The position numbers and the translations under genes were made by a program. A stretch of 16,117 bases of DNA. It comes from a virus (lineage: Duplodnaviria; Heunggongvirae; Uroviricota; Caudoviricetes). Below are positions 4,197 through 14,696 of this stretch, one piece after another (positions within the stretch are counted from its first letter, which is position 1; each line of letters begins with the position of its first letter). The DNA is taken from positions 1 through 16,117 of IMG/VR virus record IMGVR_UViG_2740892235_000017. One strand, written 5' to 3'. Below the pieces are notes generated by a model. That model saw only the letters and a program-made list of their open reading frames with translations, was not told the origin of the DNA and searched no databases.

Positions 4197-4569
4197 ATGC
4201 GAATTTTCAAAATCGCCTGGTTTGAACGTTTCGCCCGAAAACATCGGATTTCCGATAAATCGCTGCGCAAAATCGTGGAGCAGGCCGATAAGGGGGATCA
4301 TATCCGCAAATTTGGGTAGTGGTGTCATTAAACAAAGATTAGCCCGAAGTGGTGGCGGAAAATCAGGCGGTTACCGGACAATAATTTTTTACCGCGTTGC
4401 AGAAAAAGCCTTTTTCATCTACGCATACGCAAAGAATGAACGAGAGAATATCACTGCTATAGAGGAAAATGCTTTTCGAAAAGCCGCTCCCCATGTCCTC
4501 AATCTTACTGATGAACAGCTGGCACAATTGATTCAACAAGGCCAGTTCACGGAGGTACCCAATGAGTAA
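4197..4569 (+). pseudogene. HigB-2-like (RelE/ParE superfamily) toxin, interrupted by a +1 frameshift in a G-run
   Basis: Frame A from ATG 4197 (good SD) reads MRIFKIAWFERFARKHRISDKSLRKIVEQADKGDHIRKFG then TAG at 4317..4319. Frame B continues ...GSGVIKQRLARSGGGKSGGYRTIIFYRVAEKAFFIYAYAKNERENIT to 4569. Removing one G from GGG at 4314..4316 joins them in frame. The joined product resembles Vibrio HigB-2 as recalled (GKRGGSRIIYYF...YGKNE). Confidence 0.5.
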
Positions 4570-4981: not shown

Positions 4982-5137
4982 TTACTCCTCAGGTTCGTAA
5001 GCTGTGAAGACAGCGACCTCCGTCTGGCCGGTTCGGATTCGTACCTCGCAGAGGTCTTTCCTCGTTACCAGTGCCGTCATTATGACGGTTAAACAGATGA
5101 CAATCAGGGCGATTAACATCGCCTTTTGCTGCTTCAT
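4982..5137 (-). CDS. hokD: Hok/Gef-family type I toxin (HokD/RelF-like, 51 aa)
   Basis: MKQQKAMLIALIVICLTVIMTALVTRKDLCEVRIRTGQTEVAVFTAYEPEE closely matches recalled E. coli HokD (RelF). SD GGAGAAG lies upstream of the ATG at 5135..5137. The ORF-track 70-aa form is an in-frame upstream extension. Confidence 0.85.
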   Translation of the reverse strand: MKQQKAMLIALIVICLTVIMTALVTRKDLCEVRIRTGQTEVAVFTAYEPEE

Positions 5138-5400
5138 AGCCTGCTTCTCCTTGCCTTTCGGCACGTAAGAGGCTAACCTACATGTGCAAAGCATGAAATT
5201 GGCCTCAGATTAATGTTAAGCGTCCTGCAAGACGCGTAATGTTAACTGGGGCTTTTCTCTGTCTGCCTTACGGCGGCATGCCCGAGGCAGACAGCCTCAA
5301 GCACCCGCAGCAATTCTACTTAACTCTTCTTTCCCCGCAAATCATTTTATCCCCGATGGTAATGTTCTCCCGATATGGGAATTCCCATATCAAGGTTAAC
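5138..5400 (-). promoter_or_regulatory. hok leader region (mok/sok-type regulation expected); candidate antisense Sok RNA on the plus strand
   Basis: About 260 nt of untranslated leader upstream of hok, containing an inverted repeat TCTGTCTGCC...GGCAGACAG (about 5257..5292). Hok loci are known to carry a structured leader and an antisense RNA; exact ends cannot be set here. Confidence 0.35.
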
Positions 5401-5960: not shown

Positions 5961-6121
5961 GATAACGCCCTCTGGTTGATGAATTTAACTATCACCACCT
6001 TCAGGTCTCAATCATCAGGTGGCGAGACGTACAGGGTTGAGACTACCGGATCAACCAACCGGCCAGCCTTTCGGCTGCCCCATACGCCTCACCATAATTC
6101 AGATGTGCGTGCGCATACGAC

Positions 6122-6145
6122 AATAAAAAACACGCTCGCGGCGTG
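6122..6145 (-). terminator. Rho-independent terminator on minus strand
   Basis: Minus-strand hairpin CACGC-cgcga-GCGTG (plus 6131..6145) followed by TTTTTT (plus A-run 6125..6130). Confidence 0.45.
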
Positions 6146-6301
6146 TGTCTGTCGCGGTTGAATATCCGGGGTCTCAATCCCGACGGTCAACTCGACCGTG
6201 CGGTGAATATAGCCCCGGATTAGTAATTACGTCAACCCCAGCGGCAAATCGAATAAACCACCAGCGCTACCGCCATTGCAACTCCTGCCGTTACGAATGC
6301 C

Positions 6302-6565: not shown

Positions 6566-7290
6566 TGTTCTCTGGTGGCGGTAATATCCCGGAGAATATC
6601 CCGGCACTTGTTCAGCTCCCGCAGCGCGGCGCAGACTCGCTCCCACTTCTGAACCTGACCTTTTGCCCGGCGCAGCTCGCGGTTAGCCACATGCAGCGAT
6701 GGTAAAATCAGCCCATCCGGATGCTTTCTGGTGAACGACGGCTGTGACTGCACTGTGACCGCCACACTTTCCGTTTTTATTTCTTCCTGTGTTTCCGCTT
6801 CCCGGACTGGTAACGCAACACATGCTGGCTGAGGAAAGGCTTTACCATCGGTTTCCGCTACGGATGCAGCTTCCGGCTCTGCCGGTAAATCAGCGCCCGG
6901 TATGCAGTAACGAAATTTACCGCCCTGATTCACGCGAATCAGACGCCCTTTGCTGATTGCCATGGCCAGCGATGAATTCGCCCGGCGGGAGGTAATCCCG
7001 AACATCAGTGCCAGCTCATCCGCCGTTTGTGGGCCATGTTGTTCAATCGCCTCAGTCAGCATTTGCGCTGTCACTTTCGGTACCGGTGACACTGGTTCAC
7101 TTTCACCTGCCTGAGTCAGCCACCACATCGACCCCTTGTTATCCGCTTCACCACGGCGCTTCAGTTTCCACAGTTCGTTGACCGCATCTTCACGGCTGAT
7201 TCCAAGGCGGGCCGCCACTACCTGTGAAGAGGCTCTTTTCAGTGCTTTCAGTGCGTCAAATACGGTTTCCATTAAAATTTCCTCCGACAA
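6556..7290 (-). CDS. Hypothetical phage early protein (244 aa) with N-terminal winged-helix-like segment
   Basis: Long ORF immediately downstream of the P-like gene with coding-like composition. Family not confidently recognised (possibly DUF1627-like). Confidence 0.45.
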
Positions 7291-7305
7291 AATCGTTTCC
7301 CAGAT

Positions 7306-7968
7306 TCAAATAAAACCAGCTGCCTTCCGGCGTTCGTATTCCTGTTTCAGCCGTTCAATTGGCGTTGGGCCTTGAGGGTGTTTCGCCCCTTCCAGTTGTC
7401 GTCGCACTGGCGGAACACTCATCCCGTTACCAACATGCTTTGCCCATTTCGTCAGTTGCCGTTCCGCAAGTCGTTTTAACTCACCCTGCGTCATCTGGCG
7501 CTCAATCCCTCTGGTACGCATTTCGAGGCAGATGTGGTACAGCACAGGCTGTGGCCACGGGTATTTATCACTCCCGTCGTATCGCCAGGATTCATTGCGC
7601 CAGCGCCGGTACTCTTCCATCACGGCATCCACCGTAAGACCAAATGGATTTGCCCCACTCTCCGAAATCAGCGCAACAAACTCAGCCAGGTCCGGGGGCC
7701 ACGTTTCACCCGCCCGGCAGCGGTCCATGCACTGACGGCAGACCAGACGGATTTGCTGTTCAGTCATCGCACCAATCTGGGCAATCCAGAGCTTCGAAGG
7801 TGCGGCCCCGTTCTTCTGAGTCCAGCGGTTCGAATACACCTCCCCCATAAGCTCCCACAGCTTCCAGGCCGTTTCCGTTGCTGATAAATCCGTTGTCACG
7901 TTCCCACTGTTCGCGTGCTGCCCGGATTTCCTGAACTGCCCGTGATGCCGTGCCACCTGATGCTGCAT
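7306..7968 (-). CDS. Replication protein P-like (helicase loader); start uncertain
   Basis: C-terminal half (GLTVDAVMEEYRRWRNESWRYDGSDKYPWPQPVLYHICLEMRTRG...ELKRLAERQ) aligns with recalled lambda P (GLPNVSELVDMVYEYCRKRGLYPDAESYPWKSNAHYWLVTNLYQNMRA...ELRRKAADE). The ORF as drawn overlaps the O-like gene by 209 nt. Confidence 0.65.
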   Translation of the reverse strand: MQHQVARHHGQFRKSGQHANSGNVTTDLSATETAWKLWELMGEVYSNRWTQKNGAAPSKLWIAQIGAMTEQQIRLVCRQCMDRCRAGETWPPDLAEFVALISESGANPFGLTVDAVMEEYRRWRNESWRYDGSDKYPWPQPVLYHICLEMRTRGIERQMTQGELKRLAERQLTKWAKHVGNGMSVPPVRRQLEGAKHPQGPTPIERLKQEYERRKAAGFI

Positions 7969-8797
7969 GGCTTCCCCCCTTGCTGACTGGTTTTACCTGT
8001 GCCCTGACGTGCTGCACGTGGCGGGCAAATTTCTGCTCCCACTGAACCTGCGTGAAAACCTTCCCCTCCGCCATCCAGTAATCCCGGAATGCGGCAAGCT
8101 CTGCAGGTGTAAATTCCGGCTCAGGCAGAGCCATACCCCACACTGCTGCCCGTTGTCGAAAATCCGGCGACGGCTGCCAGACAGTAGTCATCGAAAATTT
8201 CCCGATCGGTTCGCTCAGGCCGTCCAGGTATTCAGGTTCGGCTGTCTGCAACGGCGCACCATTCGACTCACTGGTCGGAATACTCTCGCGCGCGTTATGT
8301 GTAGGGTTTAATTCTGTATCTGTATCTTTATCTGTCGTGACTTGTCGTGACAGATGCGTGACACGTCGTGACTCATCGTGACAATCAGCATTATGTTTCC
8401 GCAGCTTTTCCCGCTCCCGCTGCGCTCTCTTGCGCTCTGCCGGGGATTTTGCCGTTTGCGAAACGTTACCATTGTCCTCTTTCAGCACCTGACGTTTTTC
8501 CCATCCGGAAATAAGGTCACCATCCAGAACCCGCCCCTGCATTGCATGCAAAATTGAATCAATTACGTCTTCCGTCACATCAAGCGCACTTGCTAAATCT
8601 TCCGTCGTGACATCAATGTGACCACGTAGTGACACGCCGTGACATGTCGTGACATTTCGTGACGCGCTCACCAGAAGGTGTATATACACTGCCATCACTG
8701 TTGCGATTGGCTGTCCTGATACCCTGGCAATCGTTCGCCACTTGGGGTCATTTGGCATGTCATGCCACAATCTGAGCCAGGCATTAGCCATACTCAC
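7760..8797 (-). CDS. Replication initiator O-like protein (N-terminal wHTH, DnaT-like C-terminal region)
   Basis: 345-aa ORF upstream of the P-like gene. N-terminal WLRLWHDMPNDPKWRTIARVSGQ is typical of phage replisome-organizer N-domains as recalled. Contains two internal arrays of direct repeats (iterons). Confidence 0.65.
   Translation of the reverse strand: MSMANAWLRLWHDMPNDPKWRTIARVSGQPIATVMAVYIHLLVSASRNVTTCHGVSLRGHIDVTTEDLASALDVTEDVIDSILHAMQGRVLDGDLISGWEKRQVLKEDNGNVSQTAKSPAERKRAQREREKLRKHNADCHDESRRVTHLSRQVTTDKDTDTELNPTHNARESIPTSESNGAPLQTAEPEYLDGLSEPIGKFSMTTVWQPSPDFRQRAAVWGMALPEPEFTPAELAAFRDYWMAEGKVFTQVQWEQKFARHVQHVRAQVKPVSKGGSHAASGGTASRAVQEIRAAREQWERDNGFISNGNGLEAVGAYGGGVFEPLDSEERGRTFEALDCPDWCDD
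8335..8382. repeat. Iteron array 1: five TCGTGAC/GCGTGAC direct repeats at 10-11 bp spacing, inside the O-like gene
   Basis: Heptamers at 8335, 8345, 8356, 8366, 8376. An AT-rich stretch lies immediately 5' (about 8296..8334). Confidence 0.6.
8605..8663. repeat. Iteron array 2: six GTGAC-containing direct repeats at 10-11 bp spacing, inside the O-like gene
   Basis: Repeats at 8605, 8617, 8629, 8637, 8647, 8657 (TCGTGAC, TGTGAC, AGTGAC, CCGTGAC, TCGTGAC, TCGTGAC). Confidence 0.6.
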
Positions 8798-8859
8798 CTC
8801 TTCTGATACCGAACTTTACCCACGAACTTCCGGAAGAAATCCGGTATAAATATTGTTGG

Positions 8860-9285
8860 TCAATGCACAACAACAGCATTACCAGGCTGACCACCACTGT
8901 TAGTCAGGGTGCCCCAGGCGATCGCTACAGCGACAAAATCATCCACATCTTTCACCAGCCGATCCCGTCGTTCGACGATCTCCCGGTAATATTCAGAACT
9001 GTGACTGCGCATACGGGCCACCAGCAAAGGCGGCATCGCCTTTTCGATCGCCGGTAACAGCGCCTGAATTTTTTCAACAGCATCAGACGTGTCCTTCTCC
9101 ACCCAGCGGAAAATTTTCTGGGTATTACGGGCCAGGGCTTCCGGATGGCTGTCGTCATACAGTTCCGGGAACGTCATCCCCAGCTCGAAATAAGTCCGGG
9201 CTATTTCAGCTGCGGGAACTTTCTCACCATCAGGATATGCCCAGGCATTCATCGCCATACGGATGTGTTCATGCTTGATTTTCAT
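8860..9285 (-). CDS. YdaT-like protein (CII-position gene of Rac-type immunity regions)
   Basis: 141-aa ORF immediately downstream of the Cro-like gene, beginning MKIKHEHI, which matches my recollection of Rac YdaT. Assignment by position and partial recall. Confidence 0.45.
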   Translation of the reverse strand: MKIKHEHIRMAMNAWAYPDGEKVPAAEIARTYFELGMTFPELYDDSHPEALARNTQKIFRWVEKDTSDAVEKIQALLPAIEKAMPPLLVARMRSHSSEYYREIVERRDRLVKDVDDFVAVAIAWGTLTNSGGQPGNAVVVH

Positions 9286-9544
9286 GAATCACCCCCGTCT
9301 CTGGTTGTGTGTTAGCCTGACACTCGACAGGTAAGCCGTCGGTTGGGTTGGGATAAGAACTGCGATCAATCTCGTGCGGAGTTACTATCCAGCCAGTTGC
9401 TTCACACCAACGTAAAATTTTTTCCCCCGTAAGTTTCGCCCGCCCGGTAATGACATGGCTTACCATCCCCTGGGTTACCCCAACAATTTCAGCAAAATGT
9501 TTCTGAGTTATACCGGAATAACGCAAATATTCTCCAAGATTCAT
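9269..9544 (-). CDS. Cro-like / YdaS-like HTH regulator (91 aa)
   Basis: N-terminal HTH-like segment (ITQKHFAEIVGVTQGMVSHVITG). Divergent from the repressor gene. SD GAGGTG upstream of the ATG at 9542..9544. Confidence 0.6.
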   Translation of the reverse strand: MNLGEYLRYSGITQKHFAEIVGVTQGMVSHVITGRAKLTGEKILRWCEATGWIVTPHEIDRSSYPNPTDGLPVECQANTQPETGVIHENQA

Positions 9545-9574
9545 TGTTCACCTCATGTGATGTCATCACGATCA

Positions 9575-9603
9575 TTAATAGCATTGTTATTTTTAAAAGT
9601 AAA
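9575..9603 (-). promoter_or_regulatory. Candidate leftward promoter for the cro-like operon (pR analogue)
   Basis: Minus strand: -35 TTTACT (plus 9598..9603), 17-nt spacer, -10 TATTAA (plus 9575..9580). Overlaps operator candidates A and B. Confidence 0.3.
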
Positions 9604-9616
9604 TAGCGCCACTATT
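9577..9616. promoter_or_regulatory. Operator pair (OR-like): two 15-bp sites of form AATAGC-N3-GCTATT, centres 25 bp apart
   Basis: Site A 9577..9591 AATAGCattGTTATT; site B 9602..9616 AATAGCgccACTATT. Each has one mismatch to a perfect inverted repeat. Located in the cro-like/repressor intergenic region. Confidence 0.55.
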
Positions 9617-9644
9617 TCAAAGAGATTAATAATCTTATTAGAAT
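9616..9644 (+). promoter_or_regulatory. Candidate rightward promoter for the repressor operon (pRM analogue)
   Basis: -35 TTCAAA (9616..9621), 17-nt spacer, -10 TAGAAT (9639..9644). Predicted start would be close to the ATG at 9652 (near-leaderless, as for lambda cI from pRM). Confidence 0.3.
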
Positions 9645-9651
9645 TGAAGGT

Positions 9652-10152
9652 ATGAAAAGAAAATCCCTGTCAGAGATCGACCTGCAAGCCGCCCAGAGAC
9701 TAAAAGAAATCTGGACGGCGAAAAAAAATCAACTAGGGTTAACCCAAGAGCGTGCGGCAGAAATTCTGGGATTTTCGACACAGGGAGCTGTAAGCCATTA
9801 TCTAAATGGTCAGACACCTTTAAATCTTGAGGCTGTTATCAAGTTCGCAGGGTTACTGCAAGTTCCTCCCGAGTCAATCAGACCAGATATGGCCGAGTTG
9901 TTACAAATTGTAAGGATGTATCCCCAAGAATCTGGGGAGGACAATGTTGTCACTATATCTGCCGATATGGAACAATCGGAAAACGAACTTCCGTTTAATA
10001 TAGACCCCATGGAGCGGGATTTGCTCCAGACGTTCAGGGCTTTCCCCAAAGAAGATAAAGAGAAAATGCTTAAGGAAATGAAGGAGAAAAAAGAATCAAT
10101 TGAAGAAATCGTTGCGCGATGGCTAGCTGCGCAAAAAAGTCGTCGCGCCTAA
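9652..10152 (+). CDS. CI-like prophage repressor (XRE-family HTH, no S24 peptidase domain); PaaR-like first gene of a three-gene repressor-antitoxin-toxin operon
   Basis: 166-aa ORF with N-terminal HTH (LGLTQERAAEILGFSTQGAVSHYLNG) and a charged helical C-terminus. Divergent from the cro-like gene. Followed 17 nt later by the antitoxin gene. Confidence 0.65.
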   Translation: MKRKSLSEIDLQAAQRLKEIWTAKKNQLGLTQERAAEILGFSTQGAVSHYLNGQTPLNLEAVIKFAGLLQVPPESIRPDMAELLQIVRMYPQESGEDNVVTISADMEQSENELPFNIDPMERDLLQTFRAFPKEDKEKMLKEMKEKKESIEEIVARWLAAQKSRRA

Positions 10153-10169
10153 TCTGAGGAGGTCAAAAC

Positions 10170-10361
10170 ATGAGTACAGCCCTTTCCCCGATAATTTCTG
10201 AATTTGAAACGGTCGAACAAGAAAACAGCTATAACGAATGGTTGCGAGCCAAAGTGGCAGCAAGCCTCGCAGATCCCCGTTCTGGAATTCCGCATGATGA
10301 AGTAATGGCTGAAATGGAAAACCTTATTGCTCAATTAGCTACAACGAACAGGAGTGAGTAA
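10170..10361 (+). CDS. Small antitoxin of a ParE-family toxin (PaaA-like, 63 aa)
   Basis: Strong SD GAGGAGG before the ATG at 10170. Its stop overlaps the toxin ATG by 1 nt. Size and context match the PaaA2 antitoxin of paaR-paaA-parE modules as recalled. Confidence 0.55.
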   Translation: MSTALSPIISEFETVEQENSYNEWLRAKVAASLADPRSGIPHDEVMAEMENLIAQLATTNRSE

Positions 10362-10651
10362 TGCTGCCCATTTTATGGCTACCTTCTGCACGTGATGATT
10401 TACGTCAGATAGTAGCCTATATTGCTAAAGAAAACCCTCCCGCTGCACGTAGACTAAAAATACGCATTGAAACATCAGTTTTGTCACTTACTGAACACCC
10501 TTATCTGTACCCACCGAGCGAAAGAGTTCCAAGTCTTCGAGAGATAGTGACTCATCCTAACTACATAATACTTTACCGAGTAACAACATCTAACATCGAG
10601 ATCGTAAATGTAGTTCACTCACGAAGGCAGTATCCAAACAAAAGCTGTTAA
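10361..10651 (+). CDS. parE: ParE/RelE-superfamily toxin (96 aa)
   Basis: ParE-like features: N-terminal LPSARDDLRQIVAYIAKENPPAARRL and C-terminal IEIVNVVHSRRQYP. Translationally coupled to the upstream antitoxin. Confidence 0.6.
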   Translation: MLPILWLPSARDDLRQIVAYIAKENPPAARRLKIRIETSVLSLTEHPYLYPPSERVPSLREIVTHPNYIILYRVTTSNIEIVNVVHSRRQYPNKSC

Positions 10652-10662
10652 TCATTTCTGTC

Positions 10663-10688
10663 AAAAACCACCTTCGGGTGGTTTTTTT
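10663..10688 (+). terminator. Rho-independent terminator after the repressor-TA operon
   Basis: AACCACC-ttcg-GGTGGTT hairpin followed by TTTTTTT (10682..10688). Confidence 0.7.
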
Positions 10689-10699
10689 CTTGCCGTGAT

Positions 10700-10739
10700 A
10701 ATAGCGTTGCTATTTACATAATTAAATAGCAGTGGTATT
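10700..10739. promoter_or_regulatory. Operator pair (OL-like): two 15-bp sites AATAGC-N3-GCTATT, centres 25 bp apart
   Basis: Site C 10700..10714 AATAGCgttGCTATT (perfect); site D 10725..10739 AATAGCagtGGTATT (one mismatch). Same motif and same 25-bp spacing as the OR-like pair. Confidence 0.55.
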
Positions 10740-10741
10740 GT
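10713..10741 (+). promoter_or_regulatory. Candidate pL-like promoter for the early-left operon
   Basis: -35 TTTACA (10713..10718), 17-nt spacer, -10 TATTGT (10736..10741). Overlapped by operator sites C and D. Confidence 0.35.
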
Positions 10742-10919
10742 TTATGCATCAACCCACCCCGTCCCACAGAATGCAGGGCAATACTTCGAGTTACCCGGCA
10801 GTGGCAAGGGGTTAAGTAGCCAGCCCGAGGCGTATGAACATGACGGCGGGAACACTTTGTATAACAGCGCAGCAGGTTTTTAGTTCCGCTACCCGGCGTT
10901 AAGGGTAAATGAGGTCAAC

Positions 10920-11072
10920 ATGGATACGCTCAATCTTGGCAACAACGAATCTCTGGTATGCGGTGTGTTCTCTAACCAGGACGGCACGTTTACCGCGATG
11001 ACGTATACCAAAAGTAAAAAGTTTAAAACCGAAGCTGGCGCGCGTCGCTGGTTAGCCAGAAACACTAACTGA
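10920..11072 (+). CDS. Small early-left protein (50 aa; YdfA-like)
   Basis: ATG at 10920 with SD GAGGT 5 nt upstream; TGA at 11070..11072. Below the ORF-track size cutoff. Occupies the position ydfA holds downstream of dicA in Qin. Confidence 0.4.
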   Translation: MDTLNLGNNESLVCGVFSNQDGTFTAMTYTKSKKFKTEAGARRWLARNTN

Positions 11073-11324
11073 TTAGTACCAGTAAAAACAGGTTGCCACT
11101 GGTTAATTTACCCTGAAAAGTCAGGGCATAACACGAAAGCGCACGGCGAAGTTCGTATATCTGTACGGCGTCGTTAAATTTTCTTCGACCGTGCACTTCC
11201 GGTTGTGGCAATCCGCGAAATGGCGCGGCGGTAAGTATGGCTGGGGTTTCCTCCATTGCTCCAGAAAATGCACCGGGTTGTCAGGTTGACCATACGCTTA
11301 AGTGACAGCCCCGCCACAATACCC

Positions 11325-11380
11325 ATGTGTAGTCTTTGGTGGCATCAGTTCTACTCCGTGACTGCTCTGCCACCCTTTTT
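11325..11380 (+). ncRNA. dicF: DicF-like small RNA with intrinsic terminator
   Basis: Segment ...GGTGGCATCAGTTCTACTCCGTGACTGCTCTGCCACCCTTTTT closely resembles recalled E. coli DicF. Terminator stem GGTGGCA/TGCCACC (11338..11344 and 11368..11374) plus T-run 11376..11380. Lies immediately upstream of dicB as in Qin. The 5' end is approximate. Confidence 0.5.
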
Positions 11381-11547
11381 AAAGTGAATTTTGTGATGCG
11401 GTGAATGCGGCTAAGCGCACGCGGAACAGTTAAAGCTAAAAACAGCGTTATGGGTGATTCTGTATTCCGGCGTTAATTGTTAACTGGTTAACGTCACCTG
11501 GAGGCACCAGGCACCACATCACAAAATTCATTGTTGAGGACGCGATA

Positions 11548-11736
11548 ATGGAAACGTCACTACCAAACGTTAATACGTCTGAAGGGTGTTTTAATATTGG
11601 TATTCTGCTCAGTAACCGGGAGTTTACTGAGGACGCCATCAGGATGAGAAAATATGAGCCTTATCTTCTCAATGATAATTCCATACTCTCCAGAATTGCC
11701 CTTCTTGAACTTGGCATTTTCGGAGGGCAGCAGTGA
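11548..11736 (+). CDS. dicB: Cell-division inhibitor DicB (62 aa)
   Basis: METSLPNVNTSEGCFNIGILLSNREFTEDAI... matches recalled DicB (M.TLLPNVNTSEGCFEIG...FTEDAI), same length. SD GAGGA upstream. Confidence 0.75.
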   Translation: METSLPNVNTSEGCFNIGILLSNREFTEDAIRMRKYEPYLLNDNSILSRIALLELGIFGGQQ

Positions 11737-11872
11737 GTTCAGCGTTTACACTGATGATGACGGTTTTTCTGATAACAGGTGAGCCACAGAAAGTGATTAC
11801 CGGAATTTATGCCAGTAAAGAATCCTGCCATCAGGCAAGAGACGAGCAAAAAATTTCCGGTGAATGTCTCCC
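11733..11872 (+). other. ydfD-like ORF copy truncated by the assembly gap (probable artefact copy)
   Basis: GTG start overlapping the dicB TGA (GTGA). Encodes MSSAFTLMMTVFLITGEPQKVITGIYASKESCHQARDEQKISGECL and then runs into the N-run at 11873. Confidence 0.4.
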
Positions 11873-11882
11873 NNNNNNNNNN
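11873..11882. other. Assembly gap (10 N)
   Basis: Run of 10 n characters. Confidence 1.
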
Positions 11883-11940
11883 ATCATTCCATACTCTCCA
11901 GAATTGCCCTTCTTGAACTTGGCATTTTCGGAGGGCAGCA

Positions 11941-12129
11941 GTGAGTTCAGCGTTTGCACTGATGATGACGGTTTTTCTTATAACAGGTGAGCCACAGAAT
12001 GTGATTACCGGAATTTATGCCAGTAAAGAATCCTGCCATCAGGCAAGAGACGAGCAAAAAATTTCCGGTGAATGTCTCCCGTTAAACAAAGTATCGCTGT
12101 ACCTGAATAACGAAATACCGGCTGGATAA
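11941..12129 (+). CDS. ydfD: YdfD-like small membrane protein (62 aa; Qin lysis protein homologue)
   Basis: MSSAFALMMTVFLITGEPQNVITGIYASKESCHQARDEQKISGECLPLNKVSLYLNNEIPAG has an N-terminal hydrophobic helix. Position directly after dicB and size match Qin YdfD as recalled. Confidence 0.55.
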   Translation: MSSAFALMMTVFLITGEPQNVITGIYASKESCHQARDEQKISGECLPLNKVSLYLNNEIPAG

Positions 12130-12224
12130 CCCGCCAGCCATATTAACGCCATACCAACGGATTAAAAATGCCAGCAATGGCAGGGATTCGTTCACCCTGA
12201 AATCTGTAATGAGGTTTAAACACA

Positions 12225-14696
12225 ATGAGTAAAATATTTATTTGCGCCGCCATTCCTGACGAACAGGCAATAAAAAACGAGGGCGCTGTTGCTGTGGCCA
12301 CAGCCATTGAAGCCGGTGATGAACGTCGCGCCCGCGCAAAATTTCACTGGCAATTCCTTGAACATTATCCGGCTGCTCAGGACTGCGCTTATAAATTTCT
12401 TGTCTGTGAGGATAAACCCGGTACACCCCGCCCAGCCCTCGACTCCTGGGATGCTGAATATATGCTGGAAAACCGCTGGGATGAGGCGTCTGCTTCCTTT
12501 GTCCCGGTCGAACCTGAATCAGATCCGATGAACGTCACTTTTGACAAGCTGGCCCCTGAAGTACAGAACGCTGTCATGGTTAAGTTCGATACATGTGAAA
12601 ACATCACCGTTGATATGGTGATTAGCGCACAGGAATTGTTGCAGGAAGACATGGCAACCTTCGACGGACATATCGTGGAAGCTTTGATGAAAATGCCAGA
12701 AGTTAACGCCATGTATCCGGAGCTTAAGCTGTATGCCATCGGGTGGGTTAAGCATAAATGTAAGCCTGGTGCCAAATGGCCAGAAATTCAGGCAGAGATG
12801 CGCACCTGGAAAAAACGTCGCGAAGCAGAACGAAAAGAAACCGGGAAACATACTTCTGTTGTTGAGCTGGCCCGCGCCAGAGTCAACCAACAGCACACTG
12901 AAAACTCAGCAGCAAAAATCAACCCTGTCACTACTGCCATTCGTCGCGAATACAAGCAGACATGGAAAACCCTGGATGAAGAGCTGGCTTACGCTCTCTG
13001 GCCTGGTGATATTGATGCCGGAAACATTGACGGTACCATCCATCGCTGGGCTAAAAATGAGGTTATCGACAAGGATCGCGAAGACTGGAAGCGTATCTCT
13101 GCATCAATGCGCAAACAGCCTGATGCGCTTCGCTATGACCGTCAGACTATTTTTGGCCTTGTTCGTGAGCGCCCGATCGACATTCACAAAGATCCCGTTG
13201 CACTGAACAAATACATCAGCGAATACCTGACGACAAAGGGCGTGTTTGAACATGAAGAAACAGACCAGAGCTCTGCTGATGCTATCCTGTCGTCAGCAGC
13301 ACAAACTGATCCAGTGGAGACGGCGGAATCCAATTCTCAAAAAAATGAAATCCTGGTGGAAGCTGAACCATCTGTAGAGCGTGAAGGACCGTTTTATTTC
13401 GTCTTTACCGATAAGGACGGGGAAAAATACGGCAGGGCAAACAAACTTTCTGGCCTGGACAAGGCGCTGGCTGCCGGTGGTACCGAAATCTCAAAAGAAG
13501 AATATTTTGCCCGAAAAAATGGCACATATACGGGCTTACAGCAAAATACAGATACCGCAGAAGATTCAGAACAACCAGAGCCGGTAAAAGTTACCGCTGA
13601 CGAAGTAAACAAAATTATGCAGGCAGCCAATATCAGCCAGCCTGACACCGATAAATTGCTTGCTGCATCACGTGGTGAATTTGTTGAAGGGATTAGCGAC
13701 CCGAATGATCCGAAATGGGTTAAGGGGATTGAAACCCGCGATTCTGTGAACCAGAACCAGCCCGAATCGGAACAAAACGACCAGAAAGCGGAACAAAACA
13801 GTCCAAATGCGTTACAAAACGAGCCAGAAACGAAACTGCCTGAACCAGAAGTGCAACAAGAACCGGAAAAAGTTTGCACCGCATGCGGTCAGACCGGTGG
13901 CGGCAACTGTCCTGACTGTGGTGCGGTGATGGGGAACGCAACCTACCAGGAAACATTCGATGAAGAGAATCAGGCTGAAGCTCAGGAAAATGATCCGGAG
14001 GAAATGGAAGGCACTGAACATCTGCACAAGGAGAACACTATCAGCGATCAGTATCACGCCAGCGATAATAAAACTGGCGAGACAGCAAATCCCTTAATTA
14101 AAGTGAACGGTCATCATGAAATCACATCCACCAGCAGGTTGTGGCACCATCTGATGATTGACCTTGAAACAATGGGAAAAAATCCTGATGCGCCAATAAA
14201 CGCTATAGCCGGTAAGTTTTTTGATCCGGCAACCGGAGAGATGGGGCCAGAATTCAGCAAAACTATCGATCTGGAAACCGCAGGCGGGGTCATCGATCGG
14301 GGCACCATTAAGTGGTGGCTGAAACAGTCACGCGAAGCACAATCCGCCATTCTGACCGATGAAATCCCGTTGGATGATGCACTGCTGCAATTCCGGGAAT
14401 TTATCGACGAAAACTCCGGTGAATTTTTTGTTCAGGTCTGGGGTAACAGTGCAACTTTCGACAACGTGATTTTACGCCGTTCATATGAACGGCAGGGGAT
14501 CCCCTGCCCGTGGCGTTACACCAATGATCGCGATGTAAGAACGATGGTTGCTCTGGGACTGGTGATGGATTTCGACGCAAGAACGACTATTCCATTCGAA
14601 GGTGAACGCCATAACGCGCTGCACGATGCGCGTTACCAGGCAAAATACGTTTCAGCCATCTGGCAAAAACTGATCCCGAGTCAGGCTGATTTTTAA
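12225..14696 (+). CDS. Large prophage protein (823 aa) with C-terminal DnaQ-like (DEDDh) 3'-5' exonuclease domain
   Basis: SD TGAGG upstream of ATG 12225. C-terminal region has Exo I-like MIDLETMG and Exo III-like HNALHDARYQAKY. An acidic low-complexity linker (about 13740..13860) and a CxxC-x7-CxxC motif (CTACGQTGGGNCPDCG, about 13876..13923) precede it. Confidence 0.65.
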   Translation: MSKIFICAAIPDEQAIKNEGAVAVATAIEAGDERRARAKFHWQFLEHYPAAQDCAYKFLVCEDKPGTPRPALDSWDAEYMLENRWDEASASFVPVEPESDPMNVTFDKLAPEVQNAVMVKFDTCENITVDMVISAQELLQEDMATFDGHIVEALMKMPEVNAMYPELKLYAIGWVKHKCKPGAKWPEIQAEMRTWKKRREAERKETGKHTSVVELARARVNQQHTENSAAKINPVTTAIRREYKQTWKTLDEELAYALWPGDIDAGNIDGTIHRWAKNEVIDKDREDWKRISASMRKQPDALRYDRQTIFGLVRERPIDIHKDPVALNKYISEYLTTKGVFEHEETDQSSADAILSSAAQTDPVETAESNSQKNEILVEAEPSVEREGPFYFVFTDKDGEKYGRANKLSGLDKALAAGGTEISKEEYFARKNGTYTGLQQNTDTAEDSEQPEPVKVTADEVNKIMQAANISQPDTDKLLAASRGEFVEGISDPNDPKWVKGIETRDSVNQNQPESEQNDQKAEQNSPNALQNEPETKLPEPEVQQEPEKVCTACGQTGGGNCPDCGAVMGNATYQETFDEENQAEAQENDPEEMEGTEHLHKENTISDQYHASDNKTGETANPLIKVNGHHEITSTSRLWHHLMIDLETMGKNPDAPINAIAGKFFDPATGEMGPEFSKTIDLETAGGVIDRGTIKWWLKQSREAQSAILTDEIPLDDALLQFREFIDENSGEFFVQVWGNSATFDNVILRRSYERQGIPCPWRYTNDRDVRTMVALGLVMDFDARTTIPFEGERHNALHDARYQAKYVSAIWQKLIPSQADF

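Follow-up and report, generated by a model that had tools for sequence, protein, structure and literature searches.

The window, by which we mean the whole stretch of 16,117 nucleotides analyzed here, carries two near-identical 198-nt copies of a dicB-ydfD segment on either side of an assembly gap. This duplication is very probably false, an artefact of the assembler or scaffolder, with a single dicB-ydfD junction at the real locus. The two contigs that meet at the gap map to one prophage with an overlap of exactly 198 nt, the segment is present as a single copy in the complete genomes sampled, and collapsing the overlap yields intact genes; the duplication is therefore interpreted as an artefact. 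The window corresponds to positions 196–16312 of the draft scaffold CCQJ01000094.1 (GCA_000753315.1; scaffold size 120,192 bp), to which it is identical over all 14,385 nt covered by the compared locus, and represents an Escherichia coli lambdoid prophage integrated beside ompW. The left contig, about 12.07 kb in size, is prophage-internal and lies at the end of the scaffold, and the right contig continues into the chromosome.

Structure and Gene Content of the Gap Region

The window contains one run of Ns only, and the same run of ten is present in the source scaffold. The flanking copies A and B (Table 1) align without gaps over their 198 nt at an identity of 98%; the last base of copy A directly precedes the N run, and the first base of copy B directly follows it. 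The initial annotation had described ten Ns between two 198-bp copies with about four differences, a description that was accurate down to the count, which is exactly four (positions in copy A/copy B): A>C at 11677/11885, A>G at 11748/11956, G>T at 11771/11979, and A>T at 11792/12000. A repeat search found no long repeat other than this pair in the region 10500–13500. A repeat of 198 nt and 98% identity within 16 kb cannot be due to chance, and its boundaries coincide with the contig ends on both sides of the N run, which is the arrangement expected of a false duplication from an unmerged contig overlap.

Table 1. Features around the assembly gap (positions in the window).
Feature	Position	Strand	Description
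DicF sRNA	11324–11375	+	Upstream of dicB; Rfam RF00039, 61.1 bits versus a gathering score of 48
dicB	11548–11736	+	Cell-division inhibitor DicB, 62 aa, intact on left contig; Pfam PF05358
Copy A	11675–11872		Last 198 nt of left contig; 3' end of dicB and first 140 nt of ydfD
Truncated ydfD (DUF1482), 5' part	11733–11872	+	GTG start overlaps dicB stop; cut by the gap after 46 codons
Spurious 85-aa ORF	11733–11990	+	YdfD residues 1–46, XXXX from the Ns, out-of-frame read-through of copy B
Gap placeholder	11873–11882		10 N
Copy B	11883–12080		First 198 nt of right contig; four substitutions, all in 11883–12000
dicB 3' fragment, duplicated	11883–11944	+	62 nt at head of right contig; not a gene; placed from the register of the copies
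Full-length ydfD (DUF1482)	11941–12129	+	62 aa; T6A and K20N relative to the copy-A allele; Pfam PF07358
YdfE-type 3'-5' exonuclease	12225–14696	+	823 aa; Pfam YdfE_N, YdfE_C, Rv2179c-like; unique sequence anchoring right contig

The dicB product matches PF05358 over its full length (E 7.4e-34, 115.7 bits, cut-off 27), and the gene is annotated as dicB in homologous complete genomes. The product of the ydfD gene on the right contig matches PF07358 (E 1.8e-14), and the DUF1482 matches of 53.8 and 51.2 bits are full-length and above the Pfam gathering cut-off of 25. The YdfD protein of the copy-B allele is annotated as WP_000092782.1 in EC4115, STEC1587, and FORC_041, and the exonuclease is annotated as such in complete genomes. 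In the 85-aa ORF that crosses the gap, a Pfam match is confined to residues 4–46, corresponding to positions 1–44 of the 57 positions of the DUF1482 profile; this ORF is a called gene on the public record.

When the overlap is collapsed, the 85-aa ORF vanishes, as it should if it is the spurious product of the gap that the initial annotation had taken it for. What remains is an intact 62-aa DicB, whose stop codon overlaps the GTG start of an intact 62-aa YdfD/DUF1482 protein, and exactly the same overlap arrangement is found in annotated complete genomes. The accompanying claim of a false second, partial ydfD copy needs amendment: a partial copy is indeed present, but the truncated one is the left copy, and the right copy is full length.

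Comparison with Complete Genomes

Searches with each contig on its own, covering 5,426 complete E. coli genomes, placed both in one and the same prophage of finished genomes. The end of the left contig falls at position 2716636 of O113:H21 FWSEC0010 and the start of the right contig at position 2716439, an overlap of exactly 198 nt. Base-by-base comparison with the FWSEC0010 locus gave the same value: in locus coordinates, window positions 11388–11872 are matched without any difference up to 13198, and the match of the right contig begins at 13001. That two contig ends overlap but were joined with a gap, as initially proposed, is thus supported by coordinates that overlap by the length of the repeat. 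Copy A itself is 100% identical to many complete genomes.

The number of copies at the locus was assessed from the span of the matches. The best 30 complete-genome matches to the region 11300–12500 had a span about 193–208 nt below that of the query, with the single exception of 04-00955 (H4), whose longer span is caused by an insertion upstream of dicB. When the 1,241 ranked matching records were sampled evenly, each of the 49 matches that covered the query from position 1 to 671 or 683 had a span equal to the query length minus 208. Two tandem copies were seen in no sampled complete E. coli genome, and this single-copy state, together with the intact dicB and ydfD obtained by collapsing, supports the earlier expectation of one true dicB-ydfD junction.

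These comparisons bear most directly on the possibility of a genuine tandem duplication, in which at least 198 nt comprising the 3' end of dicB and the 5' end of ydfD would have been duplicated by unequal recombination between co-resident prophage alleles and then hidden by the gap. The copies are non-identical and their differences are real alleles, as could be the case for a duplication born of recombination, and the ten Ns carry no information on the true distance between the copies. However, the two-copy span occurs in none of the 30 best records, the 49 sampled full-length matches are all single copy, and the contigs map with exactly overlapping coordinates. A search for the junction of copy A to copy B with a spacer of 0–30 nt also gave no match in IMG/VR or the GTDB species representatives, which is a weak test. 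Moreover, what a real duplication leaves behind, a truncated ydfD and a piece of dicB, would have no coding sense. We thus regard a genuine duplication as extremely improbable and retain the reading that the second copy is false.

Origin of the Four Sequence Differences

Over its 4235 nt, the right contig departs from FWSEC0010 at four positions only. These are the copy-B differences, and all fall in the first 118 nt, followed by 4117 nt of complete identity; for four randomly placed mismatches, the chance of all falling within the first 118 of 4235 nt is 6e-7. The bases G at 11956, T at 11979, and T at 12000 constitute the exact allele of another prophage lineage, found for example in O157:H7 EC4115, which is near-identical through dicB-ydfD and sharply divergent to the right of position ~12140. 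Copy B is matched at an identity of at least 99% by 125 genomes, always with one mismatch left at 11885, and the C at this position occurs in no complete genome, even the best copy-B match retaining the mismatch. Position 11885 lies three bases into the right contig; the C there would cause the exchange N44H in DicB if the contigs were merged in favor of copy B, and it probably is a contig-end error. The other three sites segregate among prophages with the same right flank, which carry G/T/T in 04-00955, G/G/T in STEC1587, and G/G/A in OkiPb01685. An explanation of all four differences as contig-end sequencing errors was rejected, since three of them match a natural allele (the 125 genomes at ≥99%) and segregate among close prophages. 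The probable source of these three is a further dicB-ydfD copy carried by the same genome.

The segregation of the three sites among very close prophages, together with the failure of the assembly at exactly this place, would also be expected if the culture had contained two variants of the same prophage and the assembler had kept one variant at each contig end. Such a mixed template is very unlikely, however: the variants occupy a stretch of 45 nt and the adjacent 4.1 kb are free of them, a pattern that a short shared repeat fits better, and co-resident paralogous prophages, which are common, explain the same data without a mixed culture.

As to which allele belongs at the locus, the complete genomes with the highest bit scores against the right contig show no differences from it outside the copy-B sites (for FWSEC0010, this was confirmed at every base), and the four of these genomes that are also among the listed copy-A matches are 100% identical to copy A. 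Because of these matches, the copy-A version most likely represents the true sequence of the locus, as judged by sequence comparison. The right contig could nevertheless be correct as written, and the left contig end chimeric or foreign, because the G/T/T haplotype occurs naturally together with the same type of right flank (04-00955). A foreign left contig end, or an origin of the contigs from different prophages, likewise makes the tandem duplication false.

A dicB-ydfD Core Shared between Prophages

Second copies of the segment are found in finished genomes. FORC_041 carries two prophages whose dicB-ydfD core is at least 99% identical over ~460 bp (11466–11924 in collapsed coordinates), and both contig ends of the window fall within this interval. 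Genomes that match the 1.2-kb gap region do so at a median of 2 places and at up to 9, and 2014C-4587 and STEC2017-197 have matching places at two loci each. The conserved dicB-ydfD block has sharp mosaic boundaries at ~11388, just after DicF, and at ~12133–12140, a few bases past the ydfD stop; outside these boundaries the prophage lineages diverge strongly.

The existence of genomes with two dicB-ydfD prophages also raises the possibility that the contigs stem from two prophages of the same genome, each with a single dicB-ydfD, and that both end in the shared repeat, where ambiguous read pairs led to their being joined. The duplication would be false in this case too, and the join itself would be chimeric. 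Several observations are compatible with such mis-scaffolding: the copy-B haplotype G/T/T occurs with this type of right flank in 04-00955, the left contig is short (~12 kb), prophage-internal, and placed at the scaffold end, and the region 6956–10880 is not found beside this right flank in the aligned genomes FWSEC0010, 2014C-3307, EC4115, and 2012C-4431. On the other hand, the left-contig segments 1–6955 and 11111–11872 are collinear with the right contig in the ompW prophage of FWSEC0010 at 99.1–99.7% identity and in 2014C-3307 at 98.5–99.7%, and the mismatches of the right contig all lie in its first 118 nt, the other 4117 nt being identical to a genome with allele A. A chimeric join is accordingly considered unlikely, and two overlapping contigs of one prophage are the preferred explanation.

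Proposed Course of the Misassembly

In the preferred explanation, the two contigs of CCQJ01000094.1 would extend from both sides into the same dicB-ydfD segment of the ompW-adjoining lambdoid prophage and overlap by 198 nt. The sequenced genome presumably has at least two lambdoid prophages with a shared dicB-ydfD core, a repeat that the assembler would have failed to resolve. The break point would be this near-identical repeat of roughly 460–760 bp, common to another prophage of the same genome. The bases 11956 G, 11979 T, and 12000 T would be paralogue alleles recruited into the head of the right contig, and 11885 C would have been added as an error at the contig end. The overlap would have been left unmerged because the contig ends disagree at four positions, and the scaffolder would then have joined the ends with a minimal placeholder of ten Ns. 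In sequence submissions, a run of Ns counts as a gap from a length of ten upward, and it is common for scaffolders to replace gap estimates of zero or below by a fixed minimum. The real locus would accordingly consist of dicB (11548–11736) overlapping a single 62-aa ydfD.

Beyond the last variant site, the left contig continues for another 80 nt to its end, and 73 nt of the right contig precede the first of the three natural-allele sites. A plain de Bruijn overlap of k-1 was discarded as a poor fit to these distances and to a mismatch located as close as 3 nt to the end of a contig. As a guess, the assembler may have used read-based end extension or gap filling.

A gap that separates near-identical copies has been described as a hallmark of false duplications, and false gene gains resulting from them have been documented (Ko et al., 2022; PMC9516828). 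The present case resembles those described in that study in two ways: near-identical copies are split by an assembly gap, their merging having been stopped by sequence differences, and the annotation contains a false gene as well as a false partial gene copy. For vertebrates, the differences stem from two haplotypes or from read errors (PMC9516828), whereas here a haploid genome is concerned, and a paralogous prophage copy is the most likely source of three of the four differences. That work names a ‘heterotype’ and a ‘homotype’ of false duplication (Ko et al., 2022; PMC9516828), and the gap duplication may by analogy be regarded as a repeat-induced counterpart of the former.

Prophage Setting of the Locus

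From left to right, the locus encodes, in order, a Q antiterminator, RusA, DUF968, a RelE-like module, and hok/sok, then the replication genes and an immunity region with a PaaA2-ParE pair. These are followed by DUF1391, DicF RNA, dicB, and ydfD/DUF1482, and then by the 823-aa YdfE-type exonuclease, xis, int, ompW, and chromosomal genes. Annotations of the DicF-dicB-ydfD module of lambdoid prophages exist for hundreds of genomes. In E. coli K-12, the same dicB operon is carried by the Qin prophage, in the order DicF, dicB, ydfD, and YdfE-type exonuclease. The collapsed sequence has this order as well, with DicF RNA (RF00039), dicB (PF05358), the overlapping ydfD (PF07358), and the exonuclease, as do the annotated complete genomes. 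In contrast to the Qin-type operon, which resides in a defective prophage, the copy analyzed here belongs to a prophage integrated next to ompW that carries xis and int and is apparently intact. The extra ydfD and dicB fragments are artefacts, and the module is otherwise ordinary.

The replication and immunity region at 6956–10880, which encodes DUF1627, lambda-P-like, DnaT-like, YdaT, and Cro-like proteins and a 166-aa helix-turn-helix (HTH) repressor, finds no counterpart in the ompW prophages of FWSEC0010 and 2014C-3307, which are 99% identical elsewhere. The full left contig occurs in none of the 5,426 complete E. coli genomes, the best coverage being 75%. By sequence comparison, the difference at 6956–10880 appears as ordinary lambdoid mosaicism, in a prophage combination that is absent from the 5,426 complete genomes. 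Within the immunity region, positions 9652–10651 encode the 166-aa HTH protein followed by PaaA2 (PF21217, 63 aa) and a ParE toxin (PF05016, 96 aa), an arrangement that we take to resemble a three-gene toxin-antitoxin module of the paaR-paaA-parE type.

A second toxin locus lies at 4197–4569, where an HTH gene is preceded by a neighboring, overlapping pair of RelE-family ORFs (PF06296; 40 aa and 85 aa). Annotated complete genomes also contain this arrangement as two CDS. Because of this agreement the locus is probably a toxin gene that is conserved in a frameshifted or split state, rather than an assembly error. On the minus strand, Rfam matches above the gathering score were obtained at 5132–5306, 6015–6099, and 6125–6199; these are the sok antitoxin RNA beside the hok gene, C4 antisense RNA, and isrK.

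Implications

The duplication is not a real feature of this prophage and adds nothing biologically new, and its relevance is one of data hygiene only. The scaffold should be collapsed by 208 nt once the reads have been consulted. As the present case shows, mismatching bases in such an overlap are not always sequencing errors and may be alleles borrowed from a paralogous prophage; therefore, the first ~120 nt of the right contig are unfit for SNP typing or variant calls, and the changes to be distrusted include T6A and K20N in YdfD and the apparent N44H in DicB. The artefact has already given rise to a called 85-aa “protein” with XXXX on the public record, and the false truncated DUF1482 copy and the dicB fragment would inflate gene counts or suggest a pseudo-duplication of the prophage toxicity module.
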